64,000 nucleotides of DNA, from contig JBBIPC010000008.1 of NCBI GenBank assembly GCA_037443035.1, positions 32,001 through 96,000 on the forward strand, read 5' to 3'. Below are positions 8,471 to 16,699 of this stretch, piece after piece. Source of the DNA: Chthonomonadales bacterium. GTDB lineage: Bacteria; Armatimonadota; Chthonomonadetes; Chthonomonadales; CAJBBX01. Numbering within the stretch: position 1 is the first letter of the stretch; each line of letters starts with the position of its first letter. The notes under the pieces are model-generated. The model had not been told where the DNA came from and did not search any database. It worked only from the letters and a program-made list of their open reading frames with translations. The position numbers and the translations under genes are program-made.

Positions 8471-10117
8471 ATGGGCGTACGAACGAGGGCCGACCAGGAG
8501 CTAGAAACGCTCATCCGAGCGCGCTATCCCATCGTCTATGTCGTTTCATGGGAAGAGGATCGGGTGGAGGATGCGTTGCGGGCCATCGCCGCAGAACGCA
8601 ACAAGACGCTGCATGTGTGGACCATCACGCGGGGCTTCGGAGCTGGCACGGACAGACGTGACCCGGCGACGCGCGACCCTCTGGCGGCGCTCGAGTACGT
8701 GGCGTCGGCAGCCGACCAGGCGGTCTTCTTGCTGAAGGACTTCCACGCGTATATCAGCGACGCCAGCGTTACTCGTAGGCTGAGGGATCTGACTCCCATA
8801 CTCAAGAACAGCTACAAGAGCCTGGTGATCCTCGCACCAGCATTGAAGCTGCCTGCTGACCTGGAGAAAGAGGTCACCGTTCTCGACTACGCTCTGCCGA
8901 CCTACGAGGAGCTCGCGCGTCTTCTCGACGACATCGTGCTTACCGTCAAGGACACGCCAGGAGTCCACACCGACCTGACGCCAGAACAACGAGAGCAGGT
9001 GCTCAAGGCAGCACAGGGACTGACTGCCATGGAGGCCGAGAACGTCTTCGCCAAGTCCCTGGTCCTGACACGTACCTTCGATGTCGATGTGGTTCTGTCG
9101 GAGAAAGAACAAATCATCCGCAAGTCAGGCATCCTCGAGTACTACCCTGCGTCGGAAGCATTCAGCTCGGTTGGCGGTCTGGATCTGCTGAAGGACTGGA
9201 TGGAGAAGAGGACGTCGTCCTTTACCGACAAGGCTCGGACCTTCGGGCTACCCGAGCCGCGTGGGGTCCTCCTCATCGGCGTTCAAGGCTGCGGAAAGAG
9301 CCTTAGCGCCAAGGCGGTGGGAGCTCAGTGGCGCCTGCCCCTCCTTCGCCTCGATATCGGCAAAGTCTTCGCGGGCCTGGTCGGTGCATCGGAAGAAAAC
9401 ATGCGGAAGGCATTGCGGGTGGCCGAATCGGTCGCTCCGTGCGTTCTCTGGCTGGACGAGTTGGAGAAAGGGCTATCAGGACTGCAAAGCTCAGGGGCGT
9501 CTGACGGCGGCACAACCGCTCGAGTCTTCAGCACCTTCCTGACATGGCTGCAGGAGAAAACAGTGCCGGTCTTTGTGGTGTCGACGGCCAACCAAGTGGA
9601 GGCCCTGCCGCCAGAACTTCTTCGCAAGGGAAGGTTCGACGAGATTTTCTTCATTGATCTGCCTTCCCGCGAAGAGCGCGAGGAGATCTTCCGCATCCAT
9701 CTTCGCAAGCGAAAGCGGGATCCGTCGGAGTTCGACCTGGACCTCCTCTCGAGCGTCACGCCCGGATTCTCGGGGGCGGAGATCGAGCAGGTGGTCATCG
9801 AGGGACTGTATGAAGCCTTCGACTTAGGTGCGGAGCTCACCACCGACCACATTCTGAAGGCGGTCAGGGCCACGGTACCACTGTCCATGACCATGCGTGA
9901 GAAGATTGCGTACCTCAGGGACTGGGCTTCCACCCGCGCGCGACCAGCGTCCAGCGCGATCGCTGAGTCGTTCGAAGTACAGGCGGCCGTGTACATGAAG
10001 CTTCGCGGTACAGCGGGACAGGCTCGTGGCGCTCACGTGGATGCTGAGCCGACGGTTGTCGCCACGGAGCACCAGCCCACTCGGATTCGGCGCAGACGCA
10101 AGGGAAACGCGGCATGA
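8471..10117 (+). CDS. AAA+ ATPase, Ycf46-like
   Basis: LIRARYPIVYV..EEDR N-terminus; FLLKDFH; Walker A GVQGCGKS; Walker B LWLDELEK; PPELLRKGRFDEIFFIDLP. Confidence 0.88.
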   Translation: MGVRTRADQELETLIRARYPIVYVVSWEEDRVEDALRAIAAERNKTLHVWTITRGFGAGTDRRDPATRDPLAALEYVASAADQAVFLLKDFHAYISDASVTRRLRDLTPILKNSYKSLVILAPALKLPADLEKEVTVLDYALPTYEELARLLDDIVLTVKDTPGVHTDLTPEQREQVLKAAQGLTAMEAENVFAKSLVLTRTFDVDVVLSEKEQIIRKSGILEYYPASEAFSSVGGLDLLKDWMEKRTSSFTDKARTFGLPEPRGVLLIGVQGCGKSLSAKAVGAQWRLPLLRLDIGKVFAGLVGASEENMRKALRVAESVAPCVLWLDELEKGLSGLQSSGASDGGTTARVFSTFLTWLQEKTVPVFVVSTANQVEALPPELLRKGRFDEIFFIDLPSREEREEIFRIHLRKRKRDPSEFDLDLLSSVTPGFSGAEIEQVVIEGLYEAFDLGAELTTDHILKAVRATVPLSMTMREKIAYLRDWASTRARPASSAIAESFEVQAAVYMKLRGTAGQARGAHVDAEPTVVATEHQPTRIRRRRKGNAA

Positions 10118-11580
10118 AGGCCTCCGCGCCGCGTAGATATATGCTCGCAGGCGTCCTGGGCTTCATGCTTGCATGTCACGGACATGCTATCGCCCAGGCC
10201 ACTAGTCCGCCGGATACCGCGCATCTGTTCAATGATGCCCTGGCACGCTACAGGTCCGGCGACCTGGACGCAGCTCTGAGCCTGTTTAGGAAAGTCAGCG
10301 AAGCCACCCCGAAAGACCCCGAGATCCATAACTGGATTGGCTTTCTGCTGATGCGCATGGACAGGCACGCAGAGGCCGTCCGCTCCTTCGAGGAGGCAGT
10401 CCGTCTTCGTCCGGACTACGTAGAGGCGTGGACGAACTTGGGCACGGCATGCATGGCCGGACTCGGTGTCGAACAAGCCCTACAGGCGTTTCGTAAGGCA
10501 GCATCCCTTGCGCCGCGGAACCCGACCGTTCGCTACAACTTGGCGAACGCGCTGGCCCGTGCAGGGAAGCACGCGGAAGCCGTGGCGGAGTTCCGTGAGA
10601 CCGTGCGACTGCGACCCGAAGACTCCGCCGCGTGGAACAACCTCGGCTGTTCGCTTCAGACTCTGAAGCAGCCAGTACCTGCCGCAGACGCCTTTCGGAA
10701 GGCCGTTGCGTTGGAGCCGAAGAACGCGACGTACCAGACCAATCTCGGAGTCGCTCTCAACGAGGCTGGCAAGCCTGGCGAGGCACGGAGGGTCCTGGAA
10801 ACTGCGGTGCGACTCGACAAGCGTAACGTGGCCGCGCGGGTGGGGCTAGCCGAGGCGCTGATTCGGCTCGAGCAGTATGCGGCCGCGATTCCGCACTTGG
10901 AGGAGGCAGCACGCCTGGCACCAAGAGACTTCGCTGTGCAATACAACCTGGGTCTGGCACGTTGGCGGTCTCGCGACCTCAGAGGTGCCGTTGCTGCCTA
11001 TGAATCCGCCAGAGAGATCCTCCCGGACAACGTGGAAACGCTGACCGCCCTTGTCCAACTGTACCAGGCTGCGGGTCGCCTGGCCGACGCCATCAAGACG
11101 TGCGAGCGTTTGGTGGAACTACGGCCGGATGATGCTGGTATCCGGGTAAGGCTCGGGAATCTGAAGGCTGCGTCGGGCGACATGCCGGGCGCTGCTTCGG
11201 CGTGGGAGGATGCGACCGTCAGGGCCCCTACGAGAACCGACGTGCGGTTGCGTCTTGCGGCCTACTACCTGGAGAGGGCCAACCTGGATGCTGCAGAACG
11301 ACACTATCGGCGTGTCTTGCAGCGAGAACCCGCCAACGGTATCGCCATCAACGGTATGGGCCTCATTAGCGATCTGCGAGGCAAGCCTGGCCAGGCAGTG
11401 CAGTACTACCGACGAGCAGTTGCCGCCGCTCCCAACATGGCGGCTGCTTGGAACAACCTCGGTGTCGCGCTGGAGAAGACAGGCGATGTTGCGGGAGCAC
11501 GACGCGCGTACCGCAAGGCGCTGGCAGTGGACGCCGGGTGCACTGATGCCCGAAGAAACTTGGAGCGTCTCGGGCGCTAG
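10114..11580 (+). CDS. exported tetratricopeptide repeat protein
   Basis: Signal peptide ending AIA; many tandem TPR units (AWNNLG, YNLG, EEAVRLRP); ATGA overlap with the AAA gene. Confidence 0.88.
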   Translation: MKASAPRRYMLAGVLGFMLACHGHAIAQATSPPDTAHLFNDALARYRSGDLDAALSLFRKVSEATPKDPEIHNWIGFLLMRMDRHAEAVRSFEEAVRLRPDYVEAWTNLGTACMAGLGVEQALQAFRKAASLAPRNPTVRYNLANALARAGKHAEAVAEFRETVRLRPEDSAAWNNLGCSLQTLKQPVPAADAFRKAVALEPKNATYQTNLGVALNEAGKPGEARRVLETAVRLDKRNVAARVGLAEALIRLEQYAAAIPHLEEAARLAPRDFAVQYNLGLARWRSRDLRGAVAAYESAREILPDNVETLTALVQLYQAAGRLADAIKTCERLVELRPDDAGIRVRLGNLKAASGDMPGAASAWEDATVRAPTRTDVRLRLAAYYLERANLDAAERHYRRVLQREPANGIAINGMGLISDLRGKPGQAVQYYRRAVAAAPNMAAAWNNLGVALEKTGDVAGARRAYRKALAVDAGCTDARRNLERLGR

Positions 11581-11622: not shown

Positions 11623-11652
11623 GGAAACCCAGAGCGGTGAGAAGCCGTCTAA
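11623..11652 (+). promoter_or_regulatory. putative ECF-type sigma promoter
   Basis: GGAAAC-N17-CGTCTAA, matching the general ECF pattern of AAC at -35 and CGT at -10, just before the sigma-like gene. Confidence 0.55.
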
Positions 11653-11670
11653 TCGTGTGAGACAGGCCGA

Positions 11671-13284
11671 ATGGCCGCGAATCCCGAGAAACCGCAGAAT
11701 CGCGTGTCACGAAGCCAGCAGCCAGCCGTTATGGAAGGAAGGAGCGAGGCGGTGGCGAGGACGCTGACAGAGGGGATGTCCAAGGGGGCGGCGCGTGCCG
11801 AATCCCTGCCGCTGGACGTCGTCAGCATTGCCGACGAACTGCTTTCGCTCGTTGGACCGCGGGCGATCACCCTCCTAACGACACCCCGCCAGCTCGACGA
11901 TGGACGCATCGTGAGACCCCGACTGAGTGTCAACGACTGCTACGCCGCGCTACCAGAGGCATGCCGCAAAATGGCACGAGTCGTCGTTACGCGGCGCCAG
12001 CGCATGGGACAGGCCGGTGGCAGACTCACGCTGGAGGAGATCTTCCCCGACCCGGCGGCGTACCTTGCCAGAGCCATCCGGTCGGTGATCAGCGACGAGG
12101 GTCGGGCAGCACGGCGGGAACCGGAATGCTTTTCCCTGGACGTGCCAATCGGATCCGAGGAGGGTGCCTCGAGCTTTACGCTCGCGGATACGCTGCAAGA
12201 GGAAGATACCGATAGCCTGCCGGAAGAACGGCTTCTGGCGGAAGCTGACCGGACGGAATTCAGGGCAGCATTGCGGAAGGCATTGCGCTCCGTTCCGGCG
12301 AACTATCTCGCAGCACTGGCGCGAGACATGCAGCGAGAACGTGCTCGCCAAGCGGGAAGAGCGGTCGGACCTGCTACGGACGCAGAACGGCAAACTCTTT
12401 GCCGCGCACGTGCAGCGGTCGCGGACGTCATTCGCAAAGAATGCACAGCCGACAATCCGTATGTGTGGATGTTAGGAAGACACAGGACAGCGAAGGTGCC
12501 ACGAAAGACACAGCCGTCGGCGAAGTGGACTGGAGAACGTCAGGATGCCCTCCTGAAGCGTCTGCTCGAGGTCGGCTGGGCTGAGCGGTCGCCGGATCTA
12601 GAAGCAGGGCATGTGGCCGAGGCCGTGGTGAATGACGTCACCGAACCAGGGGCTGTAGCTCCACCGAGCCCGGAGGTCCGCCAGGCCATCCGTGTCTTGG
12701 ATCTCTACACGGTCGATCGCAAGGTGCCAGCCACGGAGCCGGCACGCTCGCTGTACGAAGAGGCGCGTGCACTGCGTGCTGCGGGTCGGATCGAAGAGGC
12801 CCTGAACAGATACCGTGAATGTTACGAGGCCGAACCGGAGTTCGTCGAGGCGCTCAACGAAGTTGGCGTCATGTACAGCCAGCTGGGCAAGCTGCGAGAC
12901 GCGCTTCGGGTGTACCTGACCATCATTGATCTCGATCCCCACGGTCCCCATCGTCACATCGCTGCGACGAACGCAGCCGACATTTACCTGACGTGGTATG
13001 ACGCCGGGCGCAACCGGGATAGGAATATCGCGCTGGCCAGGCAGTATGCCGAGATGGCAATGCAGAGACCATCGCCCATGCGGGCCTGCAATCTTATCTT
13101 GGCCCTGGTGAAGGATCGGATGTACACGGAGGCGCGAGACGTACTGGAGAGGCTGATACGGGAGGACCGAGCCGAGTGTCGCGCCCAGAAACTCCTGGAG
13201 ACAATGTTCCAGATCCGCGACCCAGACTTGGTAGCATGGTGGTCGTGGCTGGAGACGTCGCTGGGTAAGGAGCAGAAACAATGA
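11671..13284 (+). CDS. divergent sigma-70-like factor fused to a C-terminal TPR domain
   Basis: AYLARAIRSVISDEGR (region 2.3/2.4-like); SLDVPIG..TLADTL..PEE (region 3.2-like); ALRKALRSVP..RQTLCRARAAV (region 4-like); TPR helices such as EALNEVGVMYSQLGKLRDALRVY. Start codon uncertain. Confidence 0.65.
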   Translation: MAANPEKPQNRVSRSQQPAVMEGRSEAVARTLTEGMSKGAARAESLPLDVVSIADELLSLVGPRAITLLTTPRQLDDGRIVRPRLSVNDCYAALPEACRKMARVVVTRRQRMGQAGGRLTLEEIFPDPAAYLARAIRSVISDEGRAARREPECFSLDVPIGSEEGASSFTLADTLQEEDTDSLPEERLLAEADRTEFRAALRKALRSVPANYLAALARDMQRERARQAGRAVGPATDAERQTLCRARAAVADVIRKECTADNPYVWMLGRHRTAKVPRKTQPSAKWTGERQDALLKRLLEVGWAERSPDLEAGHVAEAVVNDVTEPGAVAPPSPEVRQAIRVLDLYTVDRKVPATEPARSLYEEARALRAAGRIEEALNRYRECYEAEPEFVEALNEVGVMYSQLGKLRDALRVYLTIIDLDPHGPHRHIAATNAADIYLTWYDAGRNRDRNIALARQYAEMAMQRPSPMRACNLILALVKDRMYTEARDVLERLIREDRAECRAQKLLETMFQIRDPDLVAWWSWLETSLGKEQKQ

Positions 13285-13466
13285 AGCTTGCAGATGAGAT
13301 TCGGAAACTGCTGCTTGCTGCTGCGATCGCCTCGACGTTGGCGATCGCCACGGGCAGTCTCTTGAACGGGACCTCGTGCGTGGAGCGCATCGCATCGCTT
13401 GCGACCCACAGCCACTCCATCCAGGTCGCGGACAAAGGTAGCGACGGTCAAGAGACCCACGGCTAG
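13281..13466 (+). CDS. small secreted propeptide (61 aa), putative signalling peptide precursor
   Basis: AAGGAG RBS; ATGA overlap with the upstream gene; basic N-region plus hydrophobic LLLAAAIASTLAIA; polar tail IQVA-DKGSDGQETHG. Confidence 0.7.
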   Translation: MKLADEIRKLLLAAAIASTLAIATGSLLNGTSCVERIASLATHSHSIQVADKGSDGQETHG

Positions 13467-13488
13467 ATTGCGATCATTCCAGAGCTAC

Positions 13489-13530
13489 CGTTGGCCGGCC
13501 ACTTCCTCGGGGGAAGGTGGCCGGCCAACG
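13489..13530 (+). terminator. strong stem-loop after the propeptide gene
   Basis: Perfect 14-bp inverted repeat CGTTGGCCGGCCAC / GTGGCCGGCCAACG plus inner TTCC/GGAA; no clear U-tract. Confidence 0.65.
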
Positions 13531-13567
13531 TGTCTCAGGCTGCGCTAAGCAAGAGGAGACAGCAACC

Positions 13568-14611
13568 ATGCCCATTATCCGGGATGCACGCATCGAGGTC
13601 AGGGAGATCCCGTTGCGACATCCCTTCGCTACATCACGCGACGCTGCCCCACGCCATGCAACCCCGCTAGTCCGCATCACGCTCCGCACAGACGAAGGAA
13701 TCCTGGGCACAGGGGAGTGCGTTCCCGTTCCCTATGTGACCGGTGAGACACATGCGACCGTGGAAGCCACGCTGAACCGTGCCGTGCCGGACGTCCTCGG
13801 TGCCAACTGTCTACGCCCTCAGGAGGTGCTGCGGCGCGCAGAGGTGCACTTCCGCCGGCAGCCCGCGGCATTGGCCGGTCTGGAGATGGCCATCTACGAT
13901 GCGTTCTGCAAGGAGTGCGGCGTGACACTCTGGGAGCTGTGCGGGGGTGCCATCGAGGCAGTCACGACCGACGTCACACTGTCCATAGGAGCAGATGCTC
14001 CGAAGCATGCGGCTGCCCTCGCACACGAGGGGTTCCGTATCTTCAAAGTCAAGCTGGGCCGCGGCGACCTGCAGGCCGATCTCCGAGTTCTCGAGACTGT
14101 GCACGAGGCAGTGCCCAACGGCGTCCTGCGGCTCGACGCCAACCAAGCCTACGCTGCCGATGAGGCGCTCCACCTCATAGACGAGGTGGTCAGCAAGGGA
14201 CTGCCAGTGGAACTGCTGGAGCAGCCCGTAGATCGTTCGGACTTGGGCGCCCTGCATAGGGTGGCGGCAGCATCGCCAATCCCTATCTTTGCCGACGAGG
14301 CGGTGCTCACGCCTCAAGACGCCATGCGGCTAGTGGAACACACAGCAGTTCACGGTGTAAATGTCAAGCTCATGAAATCGGGGCTGCGCGGGGCTCTCGC
14401 CATTGCGGCGGTGGCCAAGGCCGCTGACCGAAAGCTCATGATGGGTTGCATGCTGGAGACGTCGCGGGGGATCGGAACTGCACTGGCGTTGGCTGCAGGT
14501 ACGGGTCTCTTCGACTACTTCGATCTCGATGCTCATCTCCTGACCGATGCGCCACCGTGGCAGGGCATGTTCGAATCGGATGGCGCGCTACTGCGCATCA
14601 ATCGGAGATAA
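13568..14611 (+). CDS. L-Ala-D/L-Glu (dipeptide) epimerase, enolase superfamily
   Basis: KVK motif; DAN, EQP and DE metal ligands; KLMK; C-terminal DLD; GAGGAG RBS before ATG 13568. Confidence 0.85.
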   Translation: MPIIRDARIEVREIPLRHPFATSRDAAPRHATPLVRITLRTDEGILGTGECVPVPYVTGETHATVEATLNRAVPDVLGANCLRPQEVLRRAEVHFRRQPAALAGLEMAIYDAFCKECGVTLWELCGGAIEAVTTDVTLSIGADAPKHAAALAHEGFRIFKVKLGRGDLQADLRVLETVHEAVPNGVLRLDANQAYAADEALHLIDEVVSKGLPVELLEQPVDRSDLGALHRVAAASPIPIFADEAVLTPQDAMRLVEHTAVHGVNVKLMKSGLRGALAIAAVAKAADRKLMMGCMLETSRGIGTALALAAGTGLFDYFDLDAHLLTDAPPWQGMFESDGALLRINRR

Positions 14612-15296
14612 CTGCGGCGTCGTTCGTGTAGGCGGCGGCATACTCTACGGGCATGTAGGCGTAACGCCCGCCGTTGCCGGAGTCTTTGAAGATGAGAACA
14701 TCGTGCGGTTCCTCTTCTCGGCCAAGGTAGAAGCCCACGAAGAGCACGCTATGGCCGTCGTACACTTCCTCGGCTGGGCACATCCCCAGCACGCCATTAT
14801 CCCAGACCGGCGCCTTGGGCCACCGCAGACCTGCGCAGACTGGCAATCCGTCCCGTATCGCCTGCAGGACCGCCTCCAGTTCGACGTCACTGAGGCCTGT
14901 GTCAATGTCCCACGTCTTGATCCAGGCAAGGTCGTAATGATCCTCGCGAAACGCATGAGCCTGCCGTTTCGCCTCCTTGGTCGGCTCCCAATGCGGGTCG
15001 AAGGTCTCGGCATAGGGCGCGAGCCTGGCCTCGCAGATACCGTGCTTTTCATAGCCTTTCCAGAGGTCCGCGAAGAATCCGCCGTCTTCGTACTCGCCTA
15101 TCGCATCGTTGGAGGCCCAGTTGAGATACTCTTCGCTCAAGATGAAACCTGCCTGCTGCCGCTGGGAGACGGCGAACTCCAGTGCAGCCGTCATGGCGAA
15201 AACGGAGCACGTAGGCCGGCCACCCTGGGACTTCAGGGGCAGCCCCCATTTCGCAAAGAGCGGGCGCAGGTCGGCGCGGCGATTCCTGATACCCAT
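14598..15296 (-). CDS. papain-like (C1 family) cysteine peptidase
   Basis: DLR..QGGRPTCSVFA, LSEEYL, GHSVLFVGF, FKDSG; start overlaps the glmM stop (TGATG). Confidence 0.75.
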   Translation of the reverse strand: MGIRNRRADLRPLFAKWGLPLKSQGGRPTCSVFAMTAALEFAVSQRQQAGFILSEEYLNWASNDAIGEYEDGGFFADLWKGYEKHGICEARLAPYAETFDPHWEPTKEAKRQAHAFREDHYDLAWIKTWDIDTGLSDVELEAVLQAIRDGLPVCAGLRWPKAPVWDNGVLGMCPAEEVYDGHSVLFVGFYLGREEEPHDVLIFKDSGNGGRYAYMPVEYAAAYTNDAAVISD

Positions 15297-16699
15297 CAGA
15301 TCGCTCCTCCGTGGCGCTCGATAAGTGTGCAAAGCCGGCTGACGACGCTCTCGACAGCGGCCGCATCCCGCCCCTGAGCCATGACACGGACCACCGGTTC
15401 CGTGCCCGACGCTCGGACCGACAACCACTCGGGCCGTTCCAGCGCACTGCGAGCCTCCCGGATGGCTGCCTGAACGGCAGGTACCTCTTGCCAACGCCTG
15501 CGATCCGCGACGGGTACGTTCCGAAGAACTTGCGGGTAGACCGGCACGTTGCCTGCAATCTCGCCCAAAGGCTTCTGCGCCTGGCGCATCTCGCGCAGGA
15601 CCTGGAGCCCAGTCACCATCCCGTCGCCCGTTCTGGTCAGGTGGGCGAAAATGACGTGTCCCGATTGTTCCCCACCCAGTACGGCGCCCGTGCGAGCCAT
15701 CTCTTCTGCGACGTATCTATCGCCGACGTCCGTGCGGCGAAGTGCAATGCCGTGGGCCTCCAAGAAGGCTTCCAGCCCGGCGTTGCTCATGATCGTCGCG
15801 ACCACTTGGTCTCCGTCCAGTTCGCCTCGCTGTTTCATGCCAACTGCGCATATGGCCATGATCCGGTCCCCATCCACCAGGCGGCCCGCCTCGTCGCACA
15901 TGATGACGCGATCTCCGTCGCCATCGAAGGCCAGGCCGGCATCAGCGCCGACCTGCCTGACGAGTTCGCACATAGCCTGGGGAGCCGTGGAACCACAATT
16001 CCGATTGATGTTAGTGCCGTCCGGGCTTGCATGCAGTACGTGGACGTCTGCGCCGAGGTCTGCGAAGAGCGCCGGTGCGAAGTACGATGTGGCGCCGTTG
16101 GCGCAGTCGAGGACTAGTCGGAAGCCGTCGAGCGGACCACCCGCCGTGGCTGCGACATGGGCAACGTAACCCATGACGGGTGCACGATGGTGGACGAGTG
16201 CGTCTTCCGCGCCGTGAACGACTGTGTCTCCCTCCGCGGCGTCGAAGATCCTACCGATGCCGGCGCCGGTAGGCCAGGGAACGTCCTGGACATTGGCGAG
16301 GACGTCTTCGATCTCGGATTCGAGGGCATCCGGAAGCTTGCATCCGTCAGGACCCAGGAACTTGATACCATTGTCTTCGTACGGGTTGTGGGATGCCGAG
16401 ATGATCGCTCCTGCCGCAGCCCGCAACCGTACGACGATATGAGACACGGCTGGCGTCGGAACCACGCCCACGTTCGTGACAGCGCACCCCGTTGCTGCCA
16501 ATCCCGCGTTCAGTGCTGCCTCCAGCATGTCGCCAGAGATACGCGTGTCCCGGCCGACGATCACATGGCGGTTGGTAGCGTGGCGCCCGAGGATGTGGGC
16601 CGCAGCGATACCTAGCTTGAGGGCGAAGGGGGCGGTGAGCTCTCGATTCGCGACGCCACGGACCCCGTCGGTACCAAACGTGGGTTCCCTGGCTGTCAT
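15296..16699 (-). CDS. glmM: phosphoglucosamine mutase
   Basis: FGTDGVRG, ISASHNP, DGDGDR, GGEQSGH, VRASGTEP. Confidence 0.95.
   Translation of the reverse strand: MTAREPTFGTDGVRGVANRELTAPFALKLGIAAAHILGRHATNRHVIVGRDTRISGDMLEAALNAGLAATGCAVTNVGVVPTPAVSHIVVRLRAAAGAIISASHNPYEDNGIKFLGPDGCKLPDALESEIEDVLANVQDVPWPTGAGIGRIFDAAEGDTVVHGAEDALVHHRAPVMGYVAHVAATAGGPLDGFRLVLDCANGATSYFAPALFADLGADVHVLHASPDGTNINRNCGSTAPQAMCELVRQVGADAGLAFDGDGDRVIMCDEAGRLVDGDRIMAICAVGMKQRGELDGDQVVATIMSNAGLEAFLEAHGIALRRTDVGDRYVAEEMARTGAVLGGEQSGHVIFAHLTRTGDGMVTGLQVLREMRQAQKPLGEIAGNVPVYPQVLRNVPVADRRRWQEVPAVQAAIREARSALERPEWLSVRASGTEPVVRVMAQGRDAAAVESVVSRLCTLIERHGGAI

Follow-up and report, generated by a model that had tools for sequence, protein, structure and literature searches.

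Whether a bacterial sigma factor may be governed directly by a peptide signal is the question raised by a cassette of two genes, one encoding a large receptor and the other a small propeptide, that occupies positions 11,623 to 13,530 of the 64,000-nucleotide stretch of DNA analysed here (the window), which stretch comes from a Chthonomonadales bacterium of the phylum Armatimonadota (assembly GCA_037443035.1; contig JBBIPC010000008.1, positions 32,001 to 96,000, forward strand). Peptide signalling through cytoplasmic receptors composed of tetratricopeptide repeats (TPRs) is described for the Bacillota and their mobile elements; sigma factors, for their part, are described as answering to anti-sigma factors, to proteolysis or phosphorylation, to metals, or to partners of fused domains that have not been identified. 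An earlier note had read the cassette as an RRNPP-like module with a sigma-factor output, which reading is supported, at the level of sequence, by the linkage of the two genes, the sigma identity of the N-terminal half (N-half) of the receptor, and the co-variation between receptor and peptide. We consider it likely that an exported and re-imported peptide binds the groove of the TPR domain and switches the sigma half, which would control its own operon and a few secreted proteins.

The two open reading frames (ORFs) described earlier are both present—the larger at 11671–13284 (537 aa from the first ATG), the smaller at 13281–13466 (61 aa)—as are the ATGA overlap between them and the AAGGAG at 13267–13272. 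The start of the large gene at that first ATG, in contrast, had to be revised: the GTG at 11752, which lies behind an AAGGAG, is the likelier one, because the database entry and most of the close homologs are ~500–530 aa long and because the conserved promoter P2 (see below) falls inside the first 27 codons as drawn earlier. The receptor gene thus most likely starts at GTG 11752 and encodes 510 aa; residues are numbered throughout in the 537-aa frame. No transmembrane helix was found in the receptor, whose highest 19-residue hydropathy is 1.29.

A phylum-wide search recovered the receptor as a single copy in 34 of 301 genomes, comprising the source genome and all 33 other sampled Chthonomonadales, and in none of the remaining 267; a profile of the N-half, searched against the same 301, returned those 34 along with four weak partial matches outside the order (E ~1e-7 to 1e-8). 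Among 8000 candidates no fused form of greater length scored, which constitutes weak evidence. The cells have an outer membrane, since BamA was found in all five genomes tested. One divergent homolog (P0132; 498 aa, on a 22-kb contig) differs at several groove residues and, in its recognition helix, has S-R where the family has T-x-C.

The conserved downstream peptide ORF on which the earlier reading depends was present in 34 of 34 genomes, where it measures 48–87 aa, starts −14 to +9 nt from the receptor stop, and contains the motif [DEN]G-x-E-[TS]-x-G. The genome collection, whose loci overlap largely with those 34 genomes, provided 54 evaluable loci out of 55, and all 54 retained the ORF (52 with a strict match to the pattern, two with one-letter variants). 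From metagenomes we obtained 70 loci, 47 of them evaluable in having at least 330 nt downstream; 43 of these match the pattern, and in the other four the motif is a variant (two loci), belongs to an ORF displaced by ~70 nt, or stands in a different frame.

Taken together, 99 distinct propeptides (48–106 aa, median 65, with 61 aa here) hold 110 motif copies in 19 variants, 54 of the copies being DGQETHG; in 10 of the 99 the motif occurs in two or three tandem copies separated by variable spacers. In the alignment of 34 propeptides the G, E and G columns of the motif are invariant and the D, T and H columns are conserved at 90% or more, whereas the mean column identity is 21% and almost nothing outside the motif is conserved except the anatomy of a signal peptide. 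The mature peptide that had been proposed, DKGSDGQETHG, therefore stands in its DGQETHG core and not in its extent, only DG-x-E-[TS]-H-G being conserved; similarly, the motif forms the very C-terminus of the propeptide in only 34 of the 99. The signal-peptide-like N-terminus, on the other hand, was borne out by a net-positive N-region in 98 and a hydrophobic core in all 99, as scored by home-made charge and hydropathy measures and not by SignalP. The motif lies 9–36 residues after that core, an Ala-x-Ala-like pattern—a crude one—occurs in 75 of the 99 and is missing from 24, and a lipobox pattern occurs in a single propeptide. In the source genome DGQETHG is the only motif copy within a signal-peptide ORF, the two further matches of the three found genome-wide lying in unrelated frames.

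With respect to other roles of the motif, we rejected metal binding by its His, since 13 of 91 cases have N, T or G there instead, and by inference also a ribosome-arrest peptide, given the position of the ORF as the last gene and the tandem repetition. Mimicry by phages was not supported, in that of 48 viral-contig loci one passed a crude small-ORF filter and was not propeptide-like.

The sigma-like character proposed for the N-half is supported by profile and fold comparisons, though it is invisible to Pfam. Aligned by hhalign with the 17 extracytoplasmic function (ECF) sigma factors of the source genome, the N-half matched across sigma2 and sigma4, over 170 columns (probability 93.4, E 2.6e-7), which probability rose to 97.2 once four profile-selected proteins were added to the ECF set; NCBIfam gave sub-threshold sigma matches in 11 of 32 members (best E 2.8e-5). 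The model of the folded N-half (predicted local distance difference test [pLDDT] 82, predicted template-modelling score 0.47) retrieved sigma chains, from polymerase or sigma/anti-sigma entries, in 45 of the best 50 Foldseek rows, chain identity being judged from entry titles and chain letters, and sigma factors in the top four VIA rows, where the match to SigL sigma4 (Z 6.3, root-mean-square deviation 3.1, 70 residues) stays below the trust level of the tool. Furthermore, the eight most distant matches among 1.84 billion representative proteins all carry sigma-70 region matches, two of them only below the cut-off. The residues R240-Q241-x-x-x-R245-A246-R247 of the recognition helix (region 4.2) are invariant in 83 of 83 receptors, and D142 and R145 are invariant in region 2.4. 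These comparisons support an N-half that would be a divergent domain pair of the sigma-70/ECF type, with sigma2 and sigma4 in order, lying below the Pfam and NCBIfam cut-offs. The source genome also encodes a second sigma–TPR fusion (G000:C19:52304-54562, minus; L185), which has canonical sigma2 and sigma4 regions, ~580 aa of TPRs, and no transmembrane helix, and whose gene is followed by no signal-peptide ORF.

That the C-terminal half consists of TPRs was confirmed by Pfam TPR matches at residues 357–426 (TPR_2, E 8.4e-9); within it R369, N434, R471, N474, K481 and R516 are invariant, and much of the linker joining the two halves was modelled with low confidence (pLDDT ~50–64). The whole model, when submitted to Foldseek and VIA, produced TPR matches only, with generic TPRs on top, and no RRNPP structure among the best 50 fold matches, which absence excludes nothing; the TPR domain may have been recruited independently.

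To assess the correspondence between peptide and receptor, we used 91 of 99 receptor–peptide pairs, namely those with at least 235 C-terminal receptor residues. Within that set Q at peptide position 3 accompanies S403 in 60 of 61 pairs and a residue other than Q accompanies one other than S in 30 of 30, which concordance of 90/91 (phi 0.98, versus 0.63 for the next of 210 columns) provides the co-variation that the earlier note had asked for. The remaining pairings at position 3—S or T with M403, N with N, and V or I mostly with I or M—are distributed over several separate clades. On a tree of 83 full-length receptors, from whose construction the candidate columns were left out, S403 shares six changes with peptide position 3 and ranks first of 372 columns (0.63, versus 0.14 ± 0.10 for similar columns), D349 ranks first for position 6, and L345 for position 5, the best partners of positions 3, 5 and 6 all being situated in the linker/TPR half. 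By TPR geometry, we take S403 to be position 12 of a TPR helix A, facing the groove, and R369, N434, R471, N474, K481 and R516 would presumably line the same concave face. Co-variation of the peptide with the TPR domain at a putative groove position is accordingly supported. Six receptors (L021, L022 [G247, G099], L151, L113, L103 and L104) combine E397N with V400N, and two of these belong to genomes without a detectable Opp binding protein.

The same pairing bears upon a different interpretation of the small protein, according to which it would be a minimal membrane-anchored anti-sigma factor, its N-terminus holding the sigma half while a protease or partner in the periplasm senses the motif outside. 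The succession of sigma gene and coupled small gene is the classic order for such a pair, and the single hydrophobic helix, together with the 24 propeptides devoid of an Ala-x-Ala-like pattern, would agree with an anchor; nevertheless, the cytoplasmic N-region is short and unconserved, and the outer motif co-varies with a cytoplasmic TPR residue that an anchored outer segment could not reach. We hold this possibility to be very improbable.

As to what the sigma half might read, the ECF-like promoter reported earlier, GGAAAC-N17-CGTCTAA at 11623–11652 (+), does exist (P1), but the family-specific promoter is another, P2 (TGTCAC-N16-CGT), which precedes the receptor gene in 33 of 34 loci with a spacer of invariably 16 nt and mostly A or T after the CGT. 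The one locus lacking a canonical P2 (L034; G127:C171) sits on a long branch, in a genome without a family-5 binding protein, and is possibly rewired. Of the 33 P2-bearing loci, 20 have the strict P1 pattern 35–99 nt before P2, and in the source genome this pattern lies upstream of 5 of 26 sigma-family matches, including an ECF gene coupled to bamA; since the pattern precedes that gene, P1 may be an envelope-stress input. The ECF gene in question (G000:C4:179973-182440, minus; L368:2977-5441) has a P1-type motif upstream, is coupled directly to the bamA-like gene without an intervening anti-sigma gene, and likely encodes the envelope-stress sigma factor of the lineage. Moreover, P2 was matched in 11 short metagenome contigs, six of which begin 49–56 nt before it, where a transcript from P1 would start; five of those six end 91–147 nt past the peptide stop, which ends offer only a hint of a two-gene transcript.

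The ECF41 promoter is given as TGTCACA-n16-CGTC (PMC3426412), and Arg171/Ser172 of RpoE are reported to set −35 specificity (PMC7776599). The receptor's R240/Q241, invariant in 83/83, align with those RpoE positions; R-Q is found there in four of five ECF41-like helices extracted from the phylum, whereas [KR]-S is found in seven of the eight sigma4 helices listed for the source genome, and a TGTCAC-type promoter accompanies four of the six ECF41-like loci listed. Of 61 genomes of the order, only one was found to contain ECF41 itself, with no TIGR02957 match in the source genome, and P2 lies upstream of none of the other 26 sigma-family matches of that genome. From the R240/Q241 match, the near absence of ECF41, and the lack of other sigma genes with P2, we infer that the sigma–TPR protein reads P2.

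The best-scoring P2 site of the genome precedes the gene of a secreted 555-aa protein (G000:C1:44804-46471, minus; L188:10805-12472), whose homologs carry the site in 23 of 26 evaluable loci, versus 0–2 for other spacers. This protein, for which 56 of 61 genomes of the order have a homolog, combines long repeats rich in Arg, Asp, Gly and Pro with a Tyr-rich region and a C-terminal domain that is folded, and no Pfam or PDB match was obtained for it. We also collected 80 further P2 sites from 16 genomes (a subset of the matches, as listed), of which 78 gave an ORF; nine small clusters recur among them, including the receptor itself, small secreted proteins, FecR/DUF6600-like, copper-amine-oxidase-N and CarboxypepD-domain proteins, and for the rest a 70–80-aa soluble protein and two unassigned pairs, while most of the 78 are singletons, many probably due to chance. 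The 70–80-aa family, located 61–64 nt downstream of P2 in three genomes (L230, L239, L254), is a candidate feedback regulator, and the two members scanned had no Pfam match.

Against the interpretation that we favour weigh a number of results, which concern the N-half, the promoter, the co-variation and the import route. The sigma matches are individually weak, in that Pfam detected no sigma domain in 32 N-halves, Foldseek gave no match at E 0.001, the best E being 0.039, and the best VIA Z is 6.3; in the sigma4 helix-turn-helix a long helix rich in Arg has taken the form of a remodelled first helix; and P2 is not enriched genome-wide, with 10 sites versus 11–19 for other spacers. If the peptide did bind the TPR domain and the N-half were a degenerate sigma factor—a decoy or anti-activator—P2 would be read by some other sigma factor, with which the missing Pfam match, the remodelled sigma4, the 26 other sigma-family matches of the genome and the failure to match an ECF41 profile (hhalign probability 0.3) are compatible. 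That the DNA-contact residues are invariant, however, and that P2 stands before the receptor's own gene in 33/34 loci and before none of those 26, ECF41 being detected in 1/61 genomes, leaves a degenerate sigma factor decidedly improbable.

For the co-variation, the sign test on independent pairs comprised four pairs on well-supported branches, which were nearly always concordant, and with p 0.125 was underpowered; in addition, peptide position 1 and D77, a pairing that makes no structural sense, reached 0.55 in the shared-change statistic, and values of ~0.55 can thus come from ancestry. Hence one may ask whether the small ORF is merely a co-transcribed secreted product of the regulon, with the TPR domain binding something else and the co-variation reflecting shared ancestry, as the small secreted proteins among the other P2 targets and the non-significant sign test would allow. 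The concordance of 90/91 with residue-specific pairing in several separate clades, the absence of any other column above phi 0.63, and the placement of the partners of positions 3, 5 and 6 in the linker/TPR half speak to the contrary, and we accord this account the faintest credence.

With regard to import, the source genome has one family-5 binding protein plus OppB/C-like permeases, which Opp-like genes score below the curated cut-offs, so that their substrate is uncertain; across the order an Opp-type binding protein occurs in 55 of 61 genomes. Four genomes, 92–97% complete and with an intact cassette, gave no PF00496, POT or OPT match, and these constitute the main result against a universal loop of export and return and keep alive an intracellular sensing of export. 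In that event the small protein would bind the TPR domain in the cytoplasm only while its precursor remained unexported or mis-inserted, thereby reporting Sec or export stress; such a device needs no importer and so fits the four genomes without an Opp-type binding protein, its 1:1 synthesis would be ensured by translational coupling, and the near-uniformity of the motif (54/110 copies DGQETHG) is in keeping with it. Yet proteolytic release is suggested by the tandem copies, in which a hydrophobic-plus-Ala lead-in recurs while the tails vary; an Ala-x-Ala-like pattern, crude as it is, occurs in 75/99 propeptides, and the induction of secreted proteins during an export block would be hard to rationalise; we therefore regard this explanation as unlikely.

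Returning to the preferred reading, in which the exported peptide comes back to the receptor, we propose the following sequence of events. An envelope-stress ECF sigma factor would start the operon from P1, and P1 and P2 would together drive the two-gene transcript. The propeptide would be exported by Sec and trimmed outside the cytoplasm to a 6–7-residue peptide of the DGQETHG type, and this peptide would be re-imported, in most species through an Opp/Dpp-type ATP-binding-cassette transporter. It might then lie along TPR1–4, where the invariant Arg/Lys/Asn face would receive its acidic residues, residue 403 would be opposite position 3, and positions 5–6 would be next to the 345–349 strand, which would act as a lid, whereupon the linker would pass the signal to sigma4. 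The sigma half, in reading TGTCAC-N16-CGT, would bring about autoregulation and the expression of a small regulon of mostly secreted proteins. In its most far-reaching form—an order-wide, independently evolved one-component system of an outer-membrane bacterium, in which a re-imported heptapeptide gates the promoter choice of a TPR-fused sigma factor by a code between peptide position 3 and residue 403—we find the proposal fairly probable.

As to the sign of the control, we lean weakly towards inhibition, with the peptide, on its return, standing in for the missing anti-sigma factor in a negative feedback that acts with delay, because an autoregulated sigma factor without an anti-sigma factor needs a brake and because the coupled peptide is made 1:1; activation, in the sense of autoinduction, is nearly as likely. 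As to the purpose, the sensing of cell density and a self-monitoring of export and periplasmic retention are about equally likely, and a signal that is mostly uniform across the order fits either.

The features of the cassette are listed in Table 1. The perfect 14-bp inverted repeat noted earlier (13489–13502/13517–13530) was confirmed, with a z of −3.84 and none of 200 shuffles equally stable, and a stem of at least 9 bp follows the peptide ORF in 28 of 33 loci versus 33 of 205 coding control windows. No terminator was called at the hairpin, which lacks a U-tract, a T-rich tail being present in 8 of the 28 stems; it is likely the 3' end of the two-gene transcript and not a classical U-tract terminator. 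Because the flanking genes are not conserved, the commonest neighbour families occurring in 10 and 7 of 54 loci, the receptor and peptide genes are the unit. The L-Ala-D/L-Glu epimerase-like gene adjoining the cassette downstream (window 13517–14611, +), found in only 7/54 loci, was rejected as a part of the system; this gene and a papain-like one (14598–15494, −; Peptidase_C1, weak, E 0.011) are linked to the cassette only in close relatives. Upstream, behind an AAA ATPase-like gene, a 488-aa multi-TPR protein with a signal peptide is encoded at 10114–11580 (+), and its position beside the cassette is not conserved.

Table 1. Features of the sigma–TPR/propeptide cassette, in window coordinates
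Feature	Position	Strand	Basis or remark
P1, ECF (sigmaE-like) promoter motif GGAAAC-N17-CGTCTAA	11623..11652	+	putative control by a different ECF sigma factor
P2, family-specific promoter motif TGTCAC-N16-CGT	11705..11730	+	putative autoregulatory promoter of the sigma–TPR protein
AAGGAG ribosome-binding site with the GTG (11752) at which the gene likely starts	11739..11754	+	homolog lengths
Receptor gene, 510 aa: sigma2–sigma4, linker, TPR domain	11752..13284	+	
Divergent sigma-70/ECF-like half, ~residues 48–257	11812..12441	+	hhalign, fold comparison
Conserved linker before the TPRs, two short predicted strands (318–322, 341–345)	12487..12726	+	predicted lid of the pocket
TPR domain, ~five helix pairs and a capping helix	12736..13278	+	Pfam, model; S403 codon 12877–12879
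Propeptide ORF, 61 aa, translationally coupled	13281..13466	+	basic N-region, hydrophobic core, variable spacer, conserved motif
DGQETHG, predicted mature signal	13443..13463	+	motif conservation across propeptides
GC-rich hairpin 3' of the peptide gene	13489..13530	+	likely 3' end of the two-gene transcript

If the proposal were true, a sigma factor with a built-in peptide receptor would exist in a little-studied phylum of outer-membrane bacteria, which would represent both a mode of sigma control and a branch of peptide communication that the ECF and RRNPP surveys consulted do not include. The family libraries miss this sigma group altogether. With the ligand, the promoter, one conserved target and the specificity pair all named, the proposal is directly testable; it gives, furthermore, a hint at possible ligands for the TPR tails, still orphans, of ECF42-type sigma factors, and the natural receptor–peptide variants are candidate orthogonal inducible switches.

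There remains the relationship to systems already described. With the RRNPP(A) group (Rap-Phr, NprR-NprX, PlcR-PapR, AimR-AimP) the cassette shares a TPR receptor of the cytoplasm whose gene adjoins that of a small propeptide, here of putative Sec type (PMC10075063, PMC9765709, PMC12700828), a short, here predicted, mature core that is sometimes internal or in tandem, and receptor–peptide co-variation; Phr propeptides, too, carry duplicated peptide copies (PMC11343458). When set against the RRNPP signature (PMC10075063), the propeptide, of 61 aa, is within the 10–100 aa stipulated, the receptor has TPRs, and the two genes are adjacent in 34/34 genomes, whereas the receptor, with 510 aa, is marginally over the ~250–500 aa range; as regards the remaining feature, Sec export with maturation, signal-peptide anatomy was observed in 98–99 of the 99 propeptides. 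In agreeing with three of the five features the cassette would work like an RRNPP system. In RRNPPA receptors the mature peptide binds in the TPR groove and so switches their activity, and the output is a helix-turn-helix or three-helix bundle (PMC9765709, PMC12700828), by contrast with the ~210-aa half here, which aligns to sigma2–sigma4. The cassette differs also in that its host lies outside the Bacillota and has an outer membrane, in that each sampled genome of the order holds it as a single copy, and in that its signal is mostly uniform.

From the ECF42 group, of which PF20239 is the marker, the receptor is set apart by the absence of DUF6596 (no PF20239 match at E up to 1), and no YCII-like gene is among the conserved neighbours of 54 cassette loci. 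Both have an ECF core with a C-terminal TPR extension and a predicted control through a partner, but that partner would be a coupled propeptide in the cassette and is described as unidentified for ECF42 (PMC8999054, PMC7826278). To ECF41 the resemblance lies in a promoter with the same −35, spacer and CGT, the R-Q of the sigma4 recognition helix and, as predicted for the cassette, regulation by a fused C-terminal domain and a small regulon (PMC3426412); the cassette nevertheless has TPRs instead of a SnoaL-like extension, no COE gene as a neighbour, a peptide as putative partner, and no profile similarity to seven ECF41-like proteins (hhalign probability 0.3). In ComR-ComS, which controls SigX/ComX, a re-imported peptide also ends up controlling an alternative sigma factor, but there the peptide activates a helix-turn-helix regulator of the sigma gene, whereas in the cassette receptor and sigma factor would be one polypeptide. 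In line with the earlier claim of novelty, full-text searches of a collection that lacks most subscription papers turned up neither this family nor any sigma factor gated by a peptide pheromone. The cassette is real, order-wide and previously unannotated, and stands outside RRNPPA, ECF42 and ECF41, with good circumstantial evidence for a direct control by its peptide.

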